Source: Haplodiscus bocki (Eukaryota). Taken from it: a DNA stretch of 64,000 nt. Every line of letters starts with the position of its first letter. Within the stretch, counting starts at the first letter, position 1. The stretch lies in assembly GCA_965655095.1 (NCBI GenBank), contig OZ296652.1, positions 103,664,001 to 103,728,000 of the forward strand, in the 5' to 3' direction. This document shows, in pieces, positions 21,006 through 51,299 of the stretch. The translations under genes and the position numbers were made by a program. A model generated the notes under the pieces. That model made no database searches and was not told where the DNA came from. It was given only the letters and a program-made list of their open reading frames with translations.

Positions 21006-24000
21006 GTCAGTCAAAAAATAAAAAGTCTGTACTCACCAAGTGAAATCTTGACGTTAATTGATTAAGCGAGCAAAAATTAACTGGTTGATTAGTTAACCGA
21101 ACTCACATTGATTCTACCAAAACCAGCTTGATAATTGATGGAAAAAACATAGCATTTGAATTTTTGGGATGAAATAAAAACGATAGTTTTGACAGTCTGA
21201 GAGAGCAACATCATTTCTAGTAGAAAATATCCTCCTAGTAGCTTAATGGCACCTCAAAACAATTTAGGTTTTCGAGACCTGCCCTGGCACTGAAAACAAC
21301 TTTTCTCGTGACAGCACAGCTTTCTTTAAAATAGATGCAATAATGTCGTTAAGCGGTCATATTATTTTAACCTGTAAACCGGGTCAATCTCTGCGCCAAT
21401 ATTTTTAAATTCAATTAATAAGCAGAACCACATACTTTAAGGAAGAGCGCCATTACAACTGGAAAAATCGGCTTTATTTTTGTTTTTCTTTCACTTAATC
21501 GACAGCGTGCGACTACAAAATTTTGAACTTTTAAACCCAAAAAAAACAAATTCTTGAGCAACTATTGATTCGAAAAAGCACCAATGATTAAATATTACAA
21601 CGCGGTTGTTTCAACGACCGAATGAAGTTTGTATACATGGGACTGTCACTTTCGTACAATCTTTCCGGATGACTTATCCAGATGAAGATCCAGACGAAGA
21701 TTCAGAAAAGTGGATAGTTGAAGTTGTTTGCAGATTTTTACATATTAGGTCCTAGAAATATAATAAGATTATTCTAAACGTAAGTTAATCAAAAAATTTA
21801 GTGCACGAACGAAAGGAAGCAACTAGATTAGTAGATGAGCATTTTAAAAAAAGCTAGAGAGCGAGAGTTCTGTTGATAGGGACTTGACATCCCTGTATTA
21901 TAACAAACTGCCCAATTGAAACAATTTTTAAATCTACGAAATCAAAAACACTGTCGCATTTGAAAAAAGTAGTCTTCGATTAAATCAGAGGTTCTAAAAA
22001 TTTTTATATGCGTATCTGGAAAAGCTCATTGTTTTAATCTAAATAGCTATACTATCACGGTGAAAAACAAGACGAAAAAACTATGTCTCTAAACCTGATA
22101 TTCGTTTTTTCCTGCCTCGAGCTCTCACGTTTCCAGAAATAAATCACCACCTGAATAAAGTTTTCTGATAATTAGATTCGCAAATTAAATGAATAAAAAC
22201 TGAAGTTTTCCAATATTTGAAAAAATTCGTGCGGTTTGCAGTCCTTGAAATAATTCTCAAAGAGTAGTTTCTGGGGCTGAAAAAAAGTCTGTAAAAAAAG
22301 AATGAAATGAATTGGAATCAGTACCTCGTCCTAGACCAATTTGAACTTCTGCTAAGTGAAAAACAAAGATTCAGGAAACGCATCAAAAACAGCAGAAAAC
22401 AAGATTTTTTCACAAATACGTCATATGTTACAGCCGGGCGACAGATGGGACGATCCGAAAGACTCGTGCAAAGAAAAACAATGTGATTCGAATGGTAACA
22501 TAGTGACCTTCAACAAAGAGACACCACAGTGTCAAACGACAACACAAGGCGTACCAACTCCATCAACTCCAGGTGTACCTACTCCATCGACTACAGGAGT
22601 CCCTACTCCATCAACCCCAGGCGTACTCACTCCATCAACACCAGGTGTACCAACTTCATCAACACCAGGCGTACCAACGCCATCAACTCCAGGCGTGCCT
22701 ACTCCATCAACACCAGGAGTGCCTACTCAATCAACTCCAGGCGTGCCTACTCCATCAACACCAGGAGTACCCACTCCATCAACATCAGGCGTACCAACTC
22801 CATCAACTCCAGGCGTGCCTACTCCATCAACACAAGGAGTACCAACTCCATCAACACCAGGCGTACCAACGCCATCAACTCCAGGCGTGCCTACTCCATC
22901 AACACCAGGAGTGCCTACTCCATCAACTCCAGGCGTGCCTACTCCATCAACACCAGGAATACCCACTCCATCAACAAGGGGCGTACCCACTCCGTCAACA
23001 CCAGGCGTACCCACTCCATCAACACCAGGTGTACCTACACCATCAACACCAGGCGTACCAACTCCATCAACTCCAGGCGTCCCAACTCCATCAACACCAG
23101 GTGTTCCAACTCCATCAACACCAGGCGTACCGACTCCATCAACACCAGGCGTGCCTACTCAGTCAACACCAGGAGTGATTACTCCATCAACTCCAGGCGT
23201 GCCTACTCCATCAACACCAGGTGTACCTACACCATCAACTCCAGGTATACCAACTCCATCAACACCAGGCGTACCAACTCCATCAACTCCAGGCGTGCCT
23301 ACTCCCTCAACACCAGGAGTGCCTAGTCCATCAACTCCAGGCGTGCCTACTCCATCAACACCAGGAGTACCCACTCCATCAACACCAGGCGTACCAACTC
23401 CATCAACTCCAGGCGTGCCTACTCCATCAACTCCAGGCGTACCAACTCCATCAACACCAGGTGTACCAACTCCATCAACACCAGGCGTACCAACTCCATC
23501 AACTCCAGGCGTACCATTTCAATCAACTCCAGGCGTGCCTACTCCATCAACACCAGGAATACCCACTCCATCAACACCAGGAGTTCCAACTCCATCAACT
23601 CCAGGCGTGCCTACTCCATCAACACCAGGAGTGCCTAGTCCATCAACTCCAGGCGTGCCTACTCCATCAACACCAGGCGTACCAACTCCATCAACTCCAG
23701 GCGTACCAACTCAATCAACTCCAGGCGTGCCTACTCCATCAACACCAGGAATACCCACTCCATCAACACCAGGCGTACCCACTCTGTCAACACCAGGCGT
23801 ACCCACTCCATCAACACCAGGTGTACCTACACCATCAACACCAGGCGTACCAACTCCATCAACTCCAGGCGTACCAACTCCATCAACACCAGGTGTACCA
23901 ACTCCATCAACACCAGGCGTACCAACGCCATCAACTCCAGGCGTGCCTACTCCATCAACAACAGGAGTGATTACTCCATCAACTCCAGGCGTGCCTACTC

Positions 24001-27000
24001 CATCAACACCAGGTGTACCTACACCATCAACTCCAGGTATACCAACTCCATCAACACCAGGCGTACCAACTCCATCAACTCCAGGCGTGCCTACTCCCTC
24101 AACACCAGGAGTGCCTACTCCATCATTACCAAGAGTACCCACTGCATCAACTCCAGGCGTACCAACTCCATCAACTCCAGGCGTACCAACTCCATCAACT
24201 CCAGGAGTACCTACTCCATCAACTCCAGGCGTACCCACTCCATCAACACCTGGTGTACCAACCCCGTCAACACCAGGAGTATCTACACCATCGACTCTAG
24301 GCGTACCCACTCCATCAACTCCAGCCGTGCCGACTCCATCAACACAAAGAGTACCCACTCCATCAACACCAGGAGTACCCAGTGCATCAACACCCGGTGT
24401 ACCGACTCCATCAACACCAGGCGTACCAACTCCTTCAACACCAGGTGTACCAACTCCATCAACACCAAGCGTACCAACTCCATCAACTCCAGGCGTGCCT
24501 ACTCCATCAACACCAGGAGTGCCTACTCCATCAACACCAGGAATACCCACTCCATCAACACCAGGTGTACCGACTCCATCAACTCCAGGCGTTCCAACTC
24601 CATCAACACCAGGCGTACCCACTCCATCGACACCAGGCGTACCCACTCCGTCAACACCAGGCGTTCCCACTCCATCAACACCAGGTGTACCTTCAAAATC
24701 AACACCAGGCGTACCAACTCCGTCAACTCCAGGCGTACCAACTCCATCAACACCAGGCGTGCCTACTCCCTCAACACCAGGAGTGCCTACTCCATCAACA
24801 CCAGGAGTACCCACTGCATCAACGCCCGGTGTACCCTCTCCATCAACACCAGGCGTACCAACTCCATCAACACCAGGTGTACCAACTCCATCAACACCAG
24901 GTGTACCAACTCCATCAACACCAGGCGTACCTACTCCATCAACTCCAGGAGTACCTACTCCATCAACTCCAGGCGTACCCACTCCATCAACACCAGGTGT
25001 ACCAACCCCGTCAACACCAGGAGTACCTACACCATCAACTCCAGGCGTACCCACTCCATCAACTCCAGCCGTGCCGACTCCATCAACACCAGGCGTACCT
25101 ACCCCATCAACGCCAGGAGTGCCTACTCCATCAACACCAGGAGTGCCTACTCCATCAACACCAGGAGTACCCACTGCATCAACACCCGGTGTACCGACTC
25201 CATCAACACCAGCCGTGCCGACTCCATCAACACCAGGGGTACCCACTCCATCAACATCAGGAGTACCCACTGCATCAACACCCGGTGTACCGACTCCATC
25301 AACACCAGGCGTACCAACTCCTTCAACACCAGGTGTACCTACACCATCAACACCAGGCGTACCAACTCCATCAACTCCAGGCGTGCCTACTCCATCAACA
25401 CCAGGAGTACCCACTCCATCAACACCAGGTGTACCGACTCCATCAACTCCAGGCGTACCAACTCCATCAACACCAGGCGTACCCACTCCATCAACACCAG
25501 GCGTACCCACTCCGTCAACACCAGGCGTGCCTACTCCCTCAACACCAGGAGTGCCTACTCCATCAACACCAGGCGTACCAACTCCATCAACACCAGGCGT
25601 ACCCACTCCGTCAACACCAGGCGTGCCTACTCCCTCAACACCAGGAGTGCCTACTCCATCAACACCAGGCGTACCAACTCCATCAACTCCAGGCGTACCA
25701 ACTCCGTCAACACCAGGTGTACCTACACCATCAACACCAGGCGTACCAACTCCCTCAACACCAGGAGTGCCTACTCCATCAACACCAGGCGTACCAACTC
25801 CATCAACTCCAGGCGTACCAACTCCGTCAACACCAGGTGTACCTACACCATCAACACCAGGCGTACCAACTCCATCAACACCAAGCGTGCCTACTCCGTC
25901 AACACCAAGCGTGCCTACTCCGTCGACACCATCGCAGCCGGCTCCGTCTACTCCAGGTTCGAGCACATCGTTTTCGACGGTATCAGTAACACCCATTGTT
26001 CCCAAAACGACGTGTTAGATTTTTGCTATTTTTCGCTTGCGTGCATCGTTTTGGATAATATTTAAATGGATTTTTTAGCGCCACCATACGGAAACACACC
26101 ACCAACACCTGGTTATTTTTTCAACATTTTTTCAATCATTTTTTGGCAATATGGGTTACATTTCTTGCTTTGAATCACCTTGTCCATTTTCCTAAAAAGT
26201 CTTTCTGAAAGTGATCGGGTGCTGTCTTCTGAAGTCGAACTTTCCAGCTATCGAATCTGCAGCTCTTCATTCTGGTGACTTATCTTTTACGGTCTTTTCA
26301 GGACCTATCACTACAACTACTCCAAGCGAGTTCAGCAGCACAGAAAAACCATCTTGTGACCCAGCTTTGCCATGTGGTGAATCAAAGACGAGTGTTGTTA
26401 CCGAAAAATGCGACGACTCTCAGATTGATGACCCCAATTGTGGTCTGAAATACACTGACACAACTACCGTACATGGATGTTGTGAAGGTTTGTGAGCTAA
26501 ACAAATTCATACACGATCGAGCATGACAATTGCATTGGTTTATGAGATGAAAAATGAATTGAATTGACATATTTTCCTAGTTGGATCATTTGGGAGATTT
26601 TTGCATGATCTTCAACATTTATTTCAAGTTAACTTATCGATGATCTGCTTGAACAGACAAATAGGCAAGATATTTACCACAACTCCTTCCGAGTAATTCA
26701 ATTCTGCCACGCAAAATTGTTTTCTTTTGTTTCGTTTTTTTTTGTTGAGATTGCAGTTTTTTGTTGAAGAATGTATGCTTCCTTACGAAGAGTGTGCTGA
26801 GAACAAGACATGTGTGGAAATTCAATATGGATCACCTTCGGGTGATGGCTCTAGTGACGGATGTTGCTGTGGAGCGGACACCGTTTATGACGAGGTCACC
26901 AAGTCTTGTGTGAAACCAGATAACTGTGGCTGTGTGTACAATATGTCTGGAGAGTATAAGACATTCACTCCCATGGACAGCAGTGTCACGTACAAGCCCG

Positions 27001-45252: not shown

Positions 45253-48200
45253 TTATCACAATTTCTTAGAAATGAGGCATTGCTGCAACACAGCAATTGC
45301 ACCGAACCGCCAACAGTTGAATTAACCTTAAACGGATGAAATGCAGCCAAAACTCATTGAAGAAATTAATTTTGACGAGCGAAGAAAGCCAAACTGTTTT
45401 ATTTTTTATCAACTAGAAGTCTGGTGTCTTGGAAGAGTGATTTCAAAAAAGATCTCCATGCAACTCAACAAACGGTCTGAGTAACCAGTAAATGAAAGTA
45501 CGCAAAAAGGACGCTATTCGACAGTTTGTCACTAACAAAGGCAGTTTTACCGAATGCGCAAGCAAAAACAATTTGGATTCTTACATTTTACGAACGAAAG
45601 CTGCAGAATGTGTATTAGAATGAGTAAGGAAAATTTTTCTTTTGCTCAAAACAGGCATTCTTTCATGTCAGCAGAAAATCTAGTGGTATGGTGTATATGG
45701 TCAAAGGTGATTTTCTTTGAAACATTTGGCAGACTTTTTCTGATTGGGTTCTGAATCGTATACGTCTCTTGGAGTTTAGGTTGTAAAAAGCACTGCTGAA
45801 AAAAGCAGGAAGGACGTTTCAATTTTTTGACTGCGATGACTGGGAGACAGTGAGGTCTGTTTAAATTTTATCTAATGTATGACCAATTGACCACAAAATT
45901 ATTCCAATCGAGTCACTTTTCACCTCTCAGAAGTATAATTACAACCAAAAATTGAAGCACAACTAATCTAAACTCACTGAAATCGAAAACTCAATTTCTG
46001 TGACTAAATATTTTTAGGTTTCTTAAGAACTCGGAAAAAGTCTGAATCTGTACATCTTCACCAAAGAAGAATCGTTATCATAGACTTCAGAGAAATTTTC
46101 TCATTGGTAAGATGTGCAGCTGTCAACGAAATTTTTCTGATTAAAAGTTGGAAGCCTTTTTGAAGGAAAGCAAAGTGTGGAATAGAAATGCTTGCAAGTA
46201 ATTTTGATCTAGAAAGAGGGAAAAAAGCTGCATCTTTTCGACAACTTGATGAGCCAAATTTTTTTATGGTTGTGACTTCTGGGGTGAAGACGAAATCAAG
46301 CAACTTATTAAGACGCATAATGCGAGTTTAGAAAGATGATCCTAATGCAATGCTTTACGGTGAGTTCAAACGACTTGACATATAATATATACACATTGAC
46401 AGCGAATGGCGCCCTTTGGGAAACAACATGCGAAGGAATACCAGAACTTGTCCTAGACTGTGAATCGTTTGATGAAGCGAATAAACATTAATTGTAGTCT
46501 GCTTCTAGGTGTAAAAATATCATGGTAAATTGTTGAATGCCGATGATAGGTACATGCATGGTTTCTGTAGGTGACCAGTTTACCGCTTTGTTGAAAGCTG
46601 CTTCAAAGACCTTGAATTTCAATCATGGCAAACGATAGTGGGTACCAGGTTGATTTACGATTGTTATCAACATTATAAACCTCAATTTGGACAGTGAAAT
46701 TTTTTTAAGAAGTCTGAAAGGAACAGAGAGGAGCAAAAAAAGCACAGTTCAGGTATGCGTTGTTGGCAGCTCCTACAGTGGAAGAAAAATGATGAGATTT
46801 CGAACTGCTGAGTGCTTTTTCTGGTAGAAACTATGACAGGCAGATGGAAATCATAAAACAACAGTTTGTGAAAATTTTGAGGTCAGCGGTAAAACAACTT
46901 ACCGGAGTACTACAAAGGTATCCAAAGTTAATTAAAATACATCGGCTGATGACAACTACAAGTGGTCCATTATTAGAAAACTTTCTATTCTGTACAATTT
47001 ATTATGCAGGAAAAGTACTCTTTATACCCATGGAACTTTTAAGTTTTGCAATTTTTCTCTCTTCACCTTCGGGCAAAAATGGGATTTCAATTTTTTCCCT
47101 GAACAGATACTTTCTTGGGTAAAGCAATTCTCGTGGAGTTAACAGCTTACGGGTTCAAACCCCACACAGAACAAAAGCAATTTATGCAAACATTGAGAAG
47201 TTGTAGACCCTGGTGGAAAAAAGGACACATTGATTGCAACACAAATCCTTGGCTTGCTTTGCCTAAGAGAAAAATTTAAACAACTGTTAATTTTGGGATG
47301 TCATGGTGGTTCTCTCATATAATTATGACTCAGAAACCGGCTTAAGGTGGCGTTTTAGAGTTTCTTCTAAGTCAAATCCAAAACTTTCCAGAAACAGGCT
47401 TTCTTGTTTAGATTCAACTCAACTCTATTTGTTACGGTGACTCTTTTACTAAAGATTTCAAGTATTATTCTCAATCTGCTTCGTTGTTATAAGCTAAAAA
47501 CAAAAAACAATAATCCATTTTTTTAGCCGAAAAAGCGTCAATTCAAAACATTTTGGCGATTCTGCCGTTTGCAGTATGATTAAGGACCGTTTTCCACAGT
47601 TTTTTTAACCTTTTTTTGGTTTATTTGCTAATTGGTTGTGTGCATTCAGTGATTGCTTCATTCAATTCTTCTTCCACCGCTGAAGGAACGAAGAATGGCT
47701 GGCTTGATATGCTGGCTTCAACTCTCTTATTCCTTTTGCGGTAGTTTCTTTCCCGGCTGCTAACGATGTAGCTATGTAGTCTTCTTGTTACCCAATTTAG
47801 AATTAGCCATTTTCACTTCCCCTTAGTTTTCTATTGGTAACGATGGGTCTCGTAGCTGCATTTTCACAAAAAAGCAGAAACTCTGAAGTTTAGTTTTTGT
47901 GTTATCTGCGACTCTTCTCTGTCCTTACTCTGTGTCCACTTCCTGCCAGTACCTTTTGCAGTTCACTATCTTTTCTACTGATGCATGTGTCGCGTTATAG
48001 CTAACGCTTAAACAGATATATTATATTTCTTAAATGCGTGCAGTAAGCTATTAAACAGGAAATGAATAGTGTTTAACAAGAGAACTGCAGTTGGTATTGA
48101 CTAACCTGGAGGTTGCTGGTGTTGGTAAGTGCAGTATAAAAGAAAGCTGAAGGATTGGAATTGCACAAAGAGAAGGAAAAGCAAAATTTCTAATAGCGTG

Positions 48201-48519
48201 GAAAAGTGGTTCAACGCTATTGGCTCAACGACTAATCACGAAGGTGTCGTCATAACTTCGGTTCATAGCTGGCACGAGAAAGCGGCTTGGCCATTTTTGA
48301 TTTACTCGCTTACCGGCCGGCAGCCATATTCCTTTCCCTTATTTCACTTCCTTTCCCTTACGCCTCGCTTTCCTTTCCTTCTTGCTTGGCTAGAATTATC
48401 CTGGATTCTCTCCTCTCTTTCTGCGGACGAAATTATTCTAAGACAATTCTAGTTGTCCTGCTTACAAATTTCGCCACTTACAGACCCAACCGTCCAGCTC
48501 TCCACTTCTTGCAAAATGA

Positions 48520-48600
48520 TCTGATTGGCTCTCACTTAAACGGCGGCCATCTTGAAAATTCAAGTATAAATAAGCGGCGCACAGCCATAGCATTCATTCC
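48520..48600 (+). promoter_or_regulatory. core promoter copy 1 (inverted CCAAT, YY1-like GGCCATCTT, TATAAATA, Inr TCATT)
   Basis: TATA at 48565, Inr A at 48596 (31 nt spacing). Confidence 0.65.
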
Positions 48601-48889
48601 GCTTTCGAGCCTATTTCCACGAGGCGAAACTCTCTTTCTCTTCCCTCTTATCATATTTTTGGAGTTAAATCTTAACTCCGAAATTATTCTAAGACAACTT
48701 CAAAACCTGTCTCAGCCAAAATTCCTTATCGCCTCAACGAAATTATTCTAAGACATCTTCAGAACTTGTCTTAGCCAGATTTTCTTATCGCCTCAACGGA
48801 ATTATTCTAAGACAAGTTCAAAACTTGTCTTAGCCAAATATTCTGCTCTACAGAGCCAACCGTCCCGCTCTCCACTTCTCACCAAATGA

Positions 48890-48970
48890 TCCTATTGGCT
48901 CTCGCTCAACCGGCGGCCATCTTGAATTATCGAATATAAATAACCAGCGCACAGCCAGAGTATTCATTCG
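48890..48970 (+). promoter_or_regulatory. core promoter copy 2 (same architecture)
   Basis: TATA at 48935, Inr A at 48966; 370 bp downstream of copy 1. Confidence 0.65.
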
Positions 48971-49212
48971 CTTTCTAGCCTACTTCCCCGAGGCGAACCT
49001 CTCTTCCACTTCCCTCCCATCAATATTCTGGAAATATTCAAAGACTTTTCACCAACAACCCGAAAATATTCAAAGACTTTTCACCAACAACCCGAAAATA
49101 TTCAAAGACTTTTCATCAACAACCCAAAATTATTCAAAGACTTTTTCGCCTACAAATTTGTCTTAGTCGCAAATCTCAACTATATCCCGGAATTATTCAA
49201 AGACTTTTTTGG

Positions 49213-49383
49213 GCAGCAATCAACAGCAGCAATCAACAGCAGCAACCAACAGCAGCAATCAACAGCAGCAATCAACAGCAGCAATCAGCAGCAGCAATCA
49301 ACAGCAGCAATCAACAGCAGCAATCAACAGCAGCAATCAACTGCAGCAATCAACAGCAGCAATCAACAGCAGCAACCAGCAGT
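49213..49383. repeat. 13-bp minisatellite (CAACAGCAGCAAT)n, ~13 copies
   Basis: Directly visible near-perfect tandem repeat. Confidence 0.95.
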
Positions 49384-51299
49384 AACTACACAATCCACGA
49401 CGACTTGCGTTAGTTACAAATACGGTTCCTAGCAGAGGCTATGTCCTGCTAGAAGTTGATTTAGGACTAGCCGCCCGATTGTGAGTGCAGCCACCATTAC
49501 CGAGGCTTATTTTTGTGATTTTCCATTTTTCTAAAATTCCCTTTTTGTGATTTTTCCCCTTTTTTGCTAAGACCTAGTACTAACTATTAACCGGTAAAAG
49601 TAAAACTTCATTTTTCACGACCTATTGGCAGTCCCTATGACGTATGCCTTGGTCGCAGATAAAAAAGAATAAAATTTATTTTTTACTGGTTTCCCGTGGG
49701 TCCGGACTGATAATCGGCAGGGGCTAAAATACCAGTTTAAGATTAAGACACCATTTGGTAGTCATTTTTTATACTAAGAGTAGTGTAAAATGCATGTAAT
49801 GTAAAATGCATGTAATTTGAACCCCCTTTCTCTAGAGACTGGCCTATCCAGCTTGGGACTAAAACAGGGGCTAGTCTTTTTTAACCCGTCAACCGTAGGG
49901 TTCCAGAGAGTGACTTGGTTTAGCTAAACGTAACATAAAACGTAAAATGGCGGGCTAAAGAAAGCCGACCAGCGATAAGACGGGACTTGTTCGTCACCCG
50001 CACTGGTCAGAAAAGTAAAATGGTGTATGTGAAACGTTTAGTCCTATTATCAGGCAGTGGATGTGGATGTGGATTATCTTTATTCCTGATGTTTCATAAA
50101 ATTAATTTATAATTTTAAAATTTATTGGGACTAAATTTGAATAGTCCAAGAATCTATTGTAACAATTTGATCTATAATTCAATCGGACTGAATTGAACGA
50201 GTCCAATTTCTATTCATGATTTTATAGATTCTAAATTAAATTCAATTCAATAACTTCAACGTTTATATTTCATTTCATAATTTCAATTCGGACTAAATTA
50301 AATTAGTCTGAATTGGTTGATGTTGATTTCATTTATAATTTTAATTCGGACTGAATTAAATGGGTCTGAATTAACTAATGTTATTACATTTTCACTCCTA
50401 AAGTGAAAATATTTTAATGTTAACTATTCCTCATAATAATTTGTGGCATCCCCCTTTAGATCCTGTTTGTTAATCTTCTGACTTCTTGCCGGGTAAATTG
50501 TTCAATGTTAAATTTGTTGAATAAATCGAAGTTATAAGTTGGTATGTTGAATATCTGCAACAAAATAAGAGCTAACTGCAGCTTATAGCGATAAAGACCA
50601 TATGGTGAATTTCCCTGTGCTATTCCACGCTTACAGCCTCTGACGGAGCTAAGCTATATCCCCCTTACGTACGTGCAGGCAATTTCATTTCCGAAATTCA
50701 ACATGTTGGAACGCTACTGCTGATAATTCAACCTTTCTTTGTATTCTCCTTCACTATAGCTCGAAAGTCCTTGCTTGAATTCACGCAATCCCTTTGTTCG
50801 CACGGTTAAGCAAGGCACACTATTGAGACTTGTAAATATTAGCCGTCGCTACCATGCAGCAGTGCTGACCAACCGGACTGCCAGCATAGCTAAGTAAGTA
50901 ATAGACCTTCAGTACCCCTACCACGTGCGACACATGTATTCCTGATATGGGTTCTATCTGAGAAACCGGAAGCACTTTCAGACCAACATGTTTTTTGTTT
51001 TGCTCAATTGTCTTGTTTTTCGTTGTGATAGTGGCTCCAATTTTTTACTGGTCATAACAATACTTAGTAGAGTTTTGCTTTCCATCTCGCACCATATGAA
51101 CCGTGGTCTCTGTTGGGTTTTCTTAACTACAGATTTTTGTCACTTTTACAACAGCGTCGGAGCTGTATGAAACGTTTTTCGAAAAATTTTCAGCGGCTAC
51201 TGATCGTAGACAACTCAAAGGGTGTCGTTTTTTAAGTGGCGTGATCAGTAAGTCCAACCAGGCATAACTCGAAATTGACATTTTCTTCAAACTTTAGAC

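Follow-up and report, generated by a model that had tools for sequence, protein, structure and literature searches.

A probable stem-rich intron within the long terminal repeat of an env-carrying Ty3/gypsy element of Haplodiscus bocki

Analysis of a 64,000-nt stretch of Haplodiscus bocki DNA (contig OZ296652.1; hereafter the window) revealed a chain of stem-loops that coincides with a GT-AG intron lying inside a long terminal repeat (LTR). The best explanation, which we put at a probability of roughly 0.7, is a stem-chain intron in the LTR, with stems that probably identify unspliced transcripts as genome. That the region is an LTR is practically beyond doubt, and positions 49409-50053 almost certainly represent a spliceosomal intron. 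The features of the region are given in Table 1.

Table 1. Features of the LTR and its intron, in positions of the window
Feature	Position	Strand	Description
Solo LTR	47988..50932	+	2,945 bp; ends TGTCGC...GCGACA
Target-site duplication CATG	47984..47987 (left), 50933..50936 (right)		4 bp, both sides of the solo LTR
Promoter-like block 1	48524..48598	+	reversed CCAAT (ATTGG 48524), CGGCGGCCATCTT 48541, TATA TATAAATA 48565, Inr-like TCATT 48594; predicted start 48596
Promoter-like block 2	48894..48968	+	ATTGG 48894, CGGCGGCCATCTT 48911, TATAAATA 48935, TCATT 48964; predicted start 48966
59-bp tandem repeats	48679..48843		inverted pair CTAAGACA/TGTCTTAG in each unit
32-bp (49032-49145) and 13-bp (49213-49375) tandem repeats	49032..49375	+	predicted exon 1; copy-variable length
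GT-AG intron, 645 nt	49409..50053	+	donor GTTAGT, acceptor TATCAG; exactly lost in 5 genomic LTRs
Stem 2	49429..49452	+	immediately 3' of the donor; 96.5% of cells paired in the 5-bp core, without double changes
Stem 3 and inner helices	49618..49655	+	one G-C/A-U compensatory change, families A vs B
AATAAA	49668..49673	+	intronic candidate poly(A) signal, weakly conserved
Stem 4 domain	49685..49736	+	closing pair differs between families (A-U/G-C); 3' A-rich loop
Stem 5 domain, revised register	49823..49870	+	CCCC/GGGG, TCCC/GGGA, CTGG/CCAG; CTAAAA loop
Stem 6 region	49885..49954	+	outer stem weak in family B
Terminal domain (stem 7)	49967..50008	+	helix, A-rich 5' bulge, second helix
AT-rich 57-58-bp repeats	50121..50391		exon 2; GGACT/AGTC hairpins
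Hairpin near LTR 3' end	50769..50815	+	kept in families A-F

The window copy is a solo LTR derived from an env-carrying Ty3/gypsy element of ~21 kb, which bears out an earlier note on this DNA that had taken the region for the terminus of a mobile element or of an endogenous virus. Target duplications of 4 bp were found at 11 of 12 solo candidates and were exact in four of six whole elements, and the paired LTRs of whole elements (six pairs examined) showed 97.8-99.3% identity and stand as direct repeats around gag-pol. In full-length copies the LTR is adjoined by the primer-binding site AACTGGTGCGACC, which starts with TGGT as for a tRNA CCA end and is followed by four small ORFs, gag, pol and env. 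The earlier observation that no long ORF follows the stems thus holds within the window, but not for full-length copies, which continue to these genes. The encoded domains are ordered Gag, macrodomain, RT, RNase H, integrase, viral fusion protein and MATH. Among the solved structures compared, the RT is nearest to Ty3, and this similarity together with the RT-RNase H-integrase order assigns the element to Ty3/gypsy (Metaviridae). A 749-codon frame after pol matched the viral fusion glycoprotein family PF24664 (E 1.6e-28), by which the element is operationally an errantivirus; a single-sequence structure model of env reached a mean pLDDT of only 31.5, too low for use on an F-type versus an HSV/gB-type fold. 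Whole elements also carry an antisense ORF, a MATH-domain ORF and a conserved splice acceptor 43 nt upstream of env. Deleted elements of the 11-kb kind were rejected as splice products, as their joints are not GT-AG. A phage collection search gave no match, and both flanks of the insertion are covered in four sequencing runs that look like DNA contigs.

Errantiviruses in the operational sense of the survey PMC13524379, the env-carrying Ty3/gypsy elements of invertebrates, share with this element the LTR-gag-pol-env-LTR layout, the RT-RNase H-integrase order, an RT closest to Ty3, a tRNA-type primer site and recent multi-copy insertions. Unlike the elements of that survey, which excluded LTR pairs >14 kb apart, the present one measures ~21 kb, its ~3-kb LTRs being separated by 18 kb, and it differs further in its macrodomain before RT, four leader ORFs, antisense ORF and MATH-domain ORF. 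The sections of PMC13524379 seen describe no LTR intron, and the primer-site 12-mer had no match in seven of its text supplements.

The LTR contains two promoter-like blocks 370 bp apart with ~81% identity. A duplicated promoter with an exact 31-nt TATA-Inr spacing had been described before and was confirmed, since in both blocks the A of TCA lies 31 nt past the first T of TATA. Block 1 also comprises what we take to be a YY1-like motif. Transcription is predicted to start at these two TATA/Inr blocks. No ATG occurs between block 2 and the intron donor, and the 32-bp and 13-bp tandem repeats that had been reported were found again in this stretch.

Evidence for the intron came from genomic LTRs that have lost it. 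The exon joint was predicted first and then searched for, which returned five matches compared with none for a control. These five intron-less LTRs stem from four insertions, as against 488 copies keeping the donor 18-mer unspliced, and all share the same border, where microhomology is limited to 1 nt. Of the 33 matches to an acceptor-blind search, 28 were unrelated and five LTR-derived and invariably joined to 50054; the patterns of this search exclude joints with certain first letters, and other acceptors may escape it. One of the insertions is a 19.8-kb element with the target duplication ACAA/ACAA, both LTRs of which are without the intron and 98.8% identical. Mutual exon 2 identity of the four insertions is 75-82%, and the nearest (or tied nearest) neighbour of each is an unspliced copy.

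The search for intron-less copies took in families C, D and E besides that of the window copy. For the distant family E, the acceptor-blind search gave three matches (at least two insertions), all of them GT-AG losses of 858-980-nt introns in which the acceptor used lies ~200 nt beyond the position first guessed. The spliced joint of family D had two matches, both unspliced variants, and that of family C had none. Exact loss from the five LTRs and the three of family E indicates indirectly, at the level of genomic DNA, that the intron is removed exactly from RNA. Among the best 15 of 245 and the best 15 of 24 joints in DNA-like sequencing runs the intron joint was not present.

In the two-family alignment, GTTAGT is kept at the donor in 30 of 34 rows and YAG at the acceptor in 32 of 34. 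No feature is as constant across families A-F as the donor, whereas the modules vary in type and number; the donor reads GTTAGT, GTAAGT or GTGAGT, the latter two in family E. Donor, intron and terminal domain are kept even in families without blastn similarity in that region. Intron identity between A and B is 74%, and that of the adjoining AT-rich exon 59%. Sites of the CTGAT/CTTAC type were read by eye as branch points in families C and E, with none clear in A and B. The motif CGTTAG, which we had presumed to be a Myb site, was rejected as such because its position varies as the splice donor does. A primer formed by the splice junction was not supported, the longest run of complementarity between junction and primer site being 4 nt.

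We regard it as probable that some of the stems are functional as RNA. Pairing was counted in 34 copies of two LTR families (A and B), out of 60 loci collected. All seven stems listed in the earlier note are present as written in the window copy; across the 34 copies stem 1 fails (70% paired, with two pairs holding in only 5/34 and 1/34 rows), and stem 5 (89% paired, outer two pairs gapped in 18 rows) is better paired in a revised register, which shows a C-G/U-A compensatory change between families. Stems 2, 3, 4 and 7 are paired in 90-99% of cells and stem 6 in 84%. For the revised helices, 95.4% of 1,934 cells are paired compared with 25-41% when the helices are slid, and inherited G-U occurs at five pairs versus A-C at one. 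Two palindromes, GTCCGGAC at 49700-49707 in the stem 4 domain and GTTTAGCTAAAC at 49918-49929 in the stem 6 region, are found in 28 and 29 of the 34 copies. The TAAAA tracts pointed out previously are enriched and strand-biased, with 12 in the 645 nt of the intron (18.6/kb vs 3.1/kb in the window) and three TTTTA. Stem 3 as a match to the primer-site complement was discarded, the 8 nt being at chance level.

Counterparts of the terminal domain occur in families B, D, E and F, with arms that have changed yet pair; none was found in family C. With the partner picked by best pairing and one of 15 rows mis-registered, 65 of 75 cells (15 rows) are paired compared with a shuffle mean of 55.2, and none of 5,000 shuffles reached this value. 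A descriptor written after seeing the sequences matched 9 of 22 introns, while among their reverse complements it matched 3 of 22. The introns of families D and E contain 2-5 tandem modules of ~65 nt, for which RNAalifold gave no consensus pairs and a four-pair structure was mis-registered (56.7% paired). Single modules have a mean folding z of -0.85, near chance and not strand-specific. A model built from them had no significant match in the A, B or C introns, so that homology of stems 3-6 to the D/E modules is not supported.

Several stems are kept between families with compensatory changes, which supports part of the stem chain. Only four pairs change on both sides in the A+B alignment, a count that 316 of 500 shuffles reach, and two lineages provide few independent covariation events. 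Folding energy was unremarkable (z -1.54 on the plus and -1.74 on the minus strand, 1 of 20 shuffles being as good on each), and Rfam 15 had no matches at the gathering score in the window (best E 3.2 in the LTR, and 0.63 in four loci of other families). Presumed resemblances of the stems to twister, pistol, CTE and picornavirus J-K were dropped; the Rfam scans, which bear on them, gave nothing.

We give slightly better than even odds to a genome-marking role, in which the stems may act in export, packaging and copying of the unspliced RNA. Most splicing would use the cap-proximal donor 49409, with 50054 or acceptors further downstream, including the one before env, as its partners, and spliced mRNAs would receive a short, ATG-free first exon. 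We infer splicing from this donor because the unspliced leader to gag is 3.25-4.0 kb long and holds 34-38 ATGs. The weak GTTAGT donor would leave the intron in part of the RNA; intron-retaining RNA alone would rebuild a complete LTR, and intron-less progeny would be dead ends. Since the whole intron precedes the primer site, copying of spliced RNA is possible, and intron-less RNA has evidently gone through packaging and copying, which means that one round does not absolutely require the intron. The findings that bear on a Rev/Rex-type role in export or packaging are the 488:5 ratio and the lack of amplified intron-less lineages, and only these.

The least certain step is that the intronic AATAAA may act as a poly(A) signal, silenced at the 5' LTR by donor-bound U1 in foamy-virus style. 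The site reads AATAAA in 20, ATTAAA in three and otherwise in 11 of the 34 rows, is poorly kept in family B and lies paired in a hairpin in families D and E. A genome search for a poly(A)-tailed retro-copy near 49668 gave no match. Only tentatively do we extend the genome-marking reading to a switch, in which RNA retaining the intron, with its poly(A) signal and protein-binding stems, would be the genome and spliced RNA a host-like mRNA. It is likewise doubtful, taken as one joint claim, that the spliced form may release a stable viral RNA, that a spliced antisense gene acts as regulator and that all this holds throughout a lineage of giant errantiviruses. The antisense ORF of the element can be likened to HBZ, an antisense gene that is expressed from the 3' LTR and spliced.

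A stand-alone non-coding RNA of ~1.1 kb, as first proposed, is not supported by these results: the stems fill a GT-AG intron that is lost exactly, whole elements would start their genomic RNA there, and the 3' end placed at 50070 sits at the splice acceptor, 50053. Near to that proposal is the unlikely view that splicing mainly serves to set free a structured RNA that is stable as a lariat or in linear form. Protection of such an RNA would come from the terminal hairpin, which precedes the acceptor by 45 nt; the stems are confined to the intron with the most widely shared one at its 3' end, the D/E introns hold tandem modules, and stable viral introns are known; against it stand the ordinary folding energy, the acceptor of the family E retro-copies ~200 nt past the hairpin, and the fact that a genome-RNA role accounts for the near-universal retention without free RNA. 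A stable released intron RNA may occur. There is also a small chance that the intron serves chiefly as an intron, giving the transcript the look of a host gene (export, escape from the silencing that meets intronless reverse transcripts) and silencing the internal poly(A) signal, with stems that only tune splicing to leave enough of the RNA unspliced. The constancy of the donor beside changing modules would fit, and introns are reported to counter HUSH repression even unspliced (PMC8770142); in foamy virus, polyadenylation at the 5' LTR is suppressed by U1 bound to a donor upstream (PMC3694450). This view is partly compatible with the genome-marking explanation; amplified tandem modules and conserved palindromes, however, suggest binding sites over mere spacing.

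Very improbable is an internal ribosome entry site for a polycistronic unspliced RNA, for which the long, ATG-rich leader and a pyrimidine tract with repeated A-rich loops (which we take to resemble picornavirus A-rich junctions) would speak. From the end of the stems it is ~2.3 kb to gag and 0.9 kb to the first leader ORF, exon 2 with its 13 ATGs intervenes, a conserved ORF does not follow, and an IRES match in Rfam is absent. The least credible account is that an AT-rich LTR happens to fold into these stems by chance and that the intron is cryptic and functionless. The z-scores near chance, the failure of stem 1 and spliced copies of only ~1% agree with it, but not the preservation of donor, intron and terminal domain in families without blastn similarity there, nor the strong plus-strand bias of TAAAA.

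Parallels to the genome-marking explanation can be drawn from other systems. In prototype foamy virus each of the two LTRs contains the major donor, followed downstream by the poly(A) signal, and RNA structure has been proposed to choose between U1 binding and cleavage; its R region has 193 nt, and an acceptor in the LTR is not described in the accessible part of PMC3694450. In contrast, the LTR of the present element holds an acceptor as well as a donor, at a distance of 645 nt, and its poly(A) signal is only a candidate. The Rex-response element and 5' cis-acting repressive sequence of HTLV-2 are structured R/U5 RNA that is intact only in unspliced RNA, and the virus has several accessory ORFs, in the available account (PMC3434621); this likeness is drawn from description, not from sequence or structure, HTLV-2 belongs to a different virus family, and a Rex-like protein is only hypothetical here. 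Cer1 of C. elegans, a Ty3/gypsy element, must export intron-containing genomic RNA in a CERV-dependent manner; its LTRs are 491-492 bp, and the consulted part of PMC10309623 names no structured LTR-internal intron. Drosophila iERV expresses env through splicing to an upstream exon; the exons named lie upstream of or within gag, and a complete LTR intron is not described in the sections seen (PMC12992720). A literature search short of most subscription papers found no description of a Ty3/gypsy LTR that contains a complete intron.

Elements that are copied through RNA are expected to lose their introns; the LTR family of the window keeps one, upstream of the primer site. Because the genome records the rare failures, the splice sites and a loss rate of ~1% can be read from DNA alone. 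The six LTR families, with differing modules between the same donor and LTR end, form a compact comparative system for studying how genome RNA is distinguished from mRNA in Ty3/gypsy elements and how these avoid transcript ends in the 5' LTR, questions studied mostly in vertebrate retroviruses. If the switch were real, a Rex-like post-transcriptional system would have evolved independently in invertebrate Ty3/gypsy elements.

Outside the intron, the 59-bp and 58-bp arrays (the latter spanning 50231-50391) were absent from the earlier note. The 59-bp repeats, shared with families D and E at ~70%, belong to the LTR stretches that fold best (z -4 to -5.5), and the exon 2 repeat region 50238-50437 folds with z -4 to -6.7. 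That the 3' hairpin loop might pair with the donor of the element itself was a by-eye reading and was rejected, as there is no matching change at +3. On the minus strand the loop of this hairpin reads as a splice-donor-like GC/GTGAAT (50784), and conservation at the LTR 3' end is 80%, above that of the intron.

We searched the H. bocki genome (1.5 Gb) with the query 49380-50070 and obtained 2,244 first-look candidates, 40 of which were scored and, the window itself aside, showed 93-96% identity to the query. When 30 scored copies and six paired loci were placed on the window, a common unit emerged with the borders of the LTR in the table. Twelve solo LTR candidates included 11 with an exact 4-bp duplication. 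Four of the paired copies measured 21.2-23.4 kb and the other two 10.9-11.1 kb; the six LTR pairs were 97.8-99.3% identical and 4/6 had an exact target duplication. A tRNA-type primer site (AACTGGTGCGACC) lies directly 3' of the 5' LTR. Frames of one copy (6 of 11 matched, frame pieces left unjoined) match gag, macrodomain, RT, RNase H, integrase, a viral fusion glycoprotein (PF24664, E 1.6e-28) and a MATH domain; of the solved structures, that of Ty3 comes nearest to the RT of this copy. DNA contigs span both junctions of the window insertion. The ends, duplications, paired copies and gag-to-env frames therefore identify the mobile element or endogenous virus end proposed in the earlier note as the solo LTR of a Ty3/gypsy element that carries env, which counts as an errantivirus under the working definition of PMC13524379.

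From an alignment of the window's own LTR family (A) with a second family (B) we predicted an intron reaching from GTTAGT (49409) to TATCAG (50053), and the joint was searched afterwards. The predicted joint was found exactly in five genomic LTRs (control 0), with 1 nt of microhomology; the donor is kept unspliced in 488 copies. A pattern blind to the acceptor had 33 matches, each of which was inspected: five were LTR-derived, all joined to 50054, and 28 were unrelated. The five intron-less LTRs represent four insertions, 75-82% identical to one another in exon 2 and placed apart in a tree. Among them is a 19.8-kb element in which neither LTR has the intron and the target duplication is ACAA/ACAA, the outcome expected from an integrated copy of spliced RNA. 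The splice junction did not match the primer site.

Family B was reached via a 74%-identical piece adjoining one copy. Identity between A and B is 76% across the stem region, 74% in the intron, 59% in the AT-rich exon 3' of it and 80% at the LTR end. A pattern combining this primer site with different LTR ends matched at 412 places; 30 of these loci and 20 longer stretches group into families C, D, E and F, in which blastn detected no similarity to the A intron. Common to these groups are a donor-like motif 3' of the promoter, A-rich-tract stems, a stretch rich in AT and, close to the LTR end, a hairpin. At the donor position families A-D and F have GTTAGT and family E has GTAAGT or GTGAGT, variation typical of a 5' splice site. 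Acceptor-blind searching in family E gave three matches, each GGTATYC/GTAAGT joined to TTTAATGCAG/ (introns of 858-980 nt); their acceptor differs from the one guessed beforehand. Joint searches in families C and D revealed no intron-less copies.

The intron contains stems 2-7 of the stem-loop chain described earlier, and the donor falls within stem 1. The window copy has all seven stems; in an alignment of 34 copies (16 A, 18 B, selected from 60) stem 1 does not hold up and stem 6 pairs weakly in B. As originally drawn, the stems pair in 88.7% of cells (one base pair in one row), and 14 revised helices pair in 95.4%, compared with 25-41% when slid. Compensatory changes affect stem 3, stem 5 (two pairs, revised register), stem 7 and the closing pair of stem 4; they are modest evidence for the stems, because four such pairs also arise in 316/500 shuffles and few events can be drawn from two lineages. 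Inherited G-U pairs exceed A-C pairs (5 vs 1; raw cells 42 vs 45), a weak hint at a + strand RNA. The structured RNA posited in the earlier note gave no Rfam match, and the stem stretch shows no clear folding excess over shuffles (z -1.54 and -1.74; 100-nt windows inside it +0.8 to -2.9 on the + strand). One rival explanation is that the stems are due to chance. The terminal domain is a stronger case for real pairing than the A/B stems. Across the 15 rows compared (families A, B, D, E and F; partners picked by best pairing, one row mis-registered), its outer helix pairs in 65/75 cells (shuffle mean 55.2), and the arms of its inner helices are unrelated in sequence yet complementary; a descriptor written post hoc matched only 9/22 introns. 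Introns of D, E and F carry 1-5 tandem modules of ~65 nt, mostly irregular hairpins with ordinary folding energies, and the comparisons made demonstrated no relation to stems 3-6.

In four elements the unspliced leader to gag is 3,254-4,024 nt long and includes 34-38 ATGs, and the stretch between the second predicted start site and the donor has no ATG. The donor at 49409 would be the major splice donor. Owing to the position of the intron within the LTR, a complete LTR can be rebuilt only from RNA in which the intron is retained; ~99% of copies derive from such RNA, and no amplified intron-less lineage was seen among the copies examined. In their simplest role the stems, confined to unspliced RNA, would label that RNA as the one to be exported, dimerised or packaged. 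A parallel is HTLV-2, whose R/U5 Rex-response element is likewise intact only in unspliced RNA (PMC3434621); another is the dedicated route that intron-containing genomic RNA of Cer1 needs (PMC10309623). Two palindromes conserved in 28/34 and 29/34 rows are candidate dimerisation sites. Alternatively, the intron might be released as a stable RNA or might chiefly mimic a host gene (PMC8770142), or the stems might act as an IRES.

An AATAAA at 49668 follows the donor by 260 nt, which is the foamy-virus order (PMC3694450). It is variable in family B, and a search for poly(A)-tailed copies revealed no cleavage site for this signal. In D and E (e.g. L138, L157) AATAAA forms a hairpin with TTTATT; the AACAAA of one D/E copy faces a correspondingly altered TTTGT, a hint that the pairing matters. 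Assignment of U3/R/U5 borders requires RNA data (PMC3601003). LTRs of foamy viruses and HTLV are already known to contain splice donors and structured RNA; our literature search found no complete structured intron in a Ty3/gypsy LTR with exact loss in genomic copies.

The duplicated promoter-like blocks with 31-nt TATA-Inr spacing are both present in the window, as had been noted, and in 4/4 whole elements checked; the 32-bp and 13-bp tandem repeats likewise stand as described. Two further arrays, of 59-bp and 58-bp repeats, reach folding z of -4 to -6.7. Among six family B loci checked, four have TATA-like boxes, three CACGTG and none the promoter-block motif that we take to be YY1-like. Two LTRs (L108, L126) show large deletions that do not match splice sites, and in L108 the 59-bp repeat is greatly expanded.

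Features of the window (plain positions) and of other genomic loci (L-numbers, positions internal to the locus)
Feature	Position	Description
Solo LTR	47988-50932	ends TGTCGC...GCGACA, CATG on either side
Hairpin near LTR 3' end	50769-50815	kept in A-F
Repeat-rich frame	22356-26018	1,220 codons, mostly 141 copies of a 24-bp repeat (TPGVPTPS), mucin-like
Four small ORFs between primer site and gag	L039:4430-5790	72, 120, 117, 113 codons
TARG1/OARD1-like macrodomain	L039:8287-8480	immediately 5' of RT
ORF with TRAF/MATH domain	L040:8325-9752	between env and 3' LTR
Antisense ORF	L040:3123-3674 (-), L146:3523-4026 (-)	184 codons
Frame beside family B LTR piece	L047:2-1888	629 codons, RYKR motif, then hydrophobic stretch

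The last three of the small leader ORFs resemble duplicates by eye. A pyrimidine-rich acceptor lies 43 nt 5' of the env ATG in 5/5 full-length elements; in Drosophila elements spliced RNA yields env (PMC12992720). Three internal deletions are common to two 11-kb deleted elements, C1 and C7 (L034-L035, L042-L043), and point to a non-autonomous subfamily that spread despite lacking pol. Both retain the TRAF/MATH ORF, fused to the env start. No polypurine tract adjoins the 3' LTR in the 40 nt 5' of it in six elements; this stretch is pyrimidine-rich and ends with GTGAGT or similar. The frame in L047 may be another envelope type and had no Pfam match.

The hairpin near the LTR 3' end is paired in 90.7% of 172 cells (alignment A3), with double changes at three pairs. 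Its loop reads GC/GTRART on the minus strand, splice-donor-like, as if for an antisense RNA. A branch-like CTGATG and a TTGCAG acceptor immediately precede the ATG of the antisense ORF in 5/5 full-length elements, and family E has a homolog of this ORF (36% over 140 aa) inside the LTR. The ORF is possibly spliced from the antisense donor in the 3' LTR. The mucin-like frame elsewhere in the window is probably a host gene exon.
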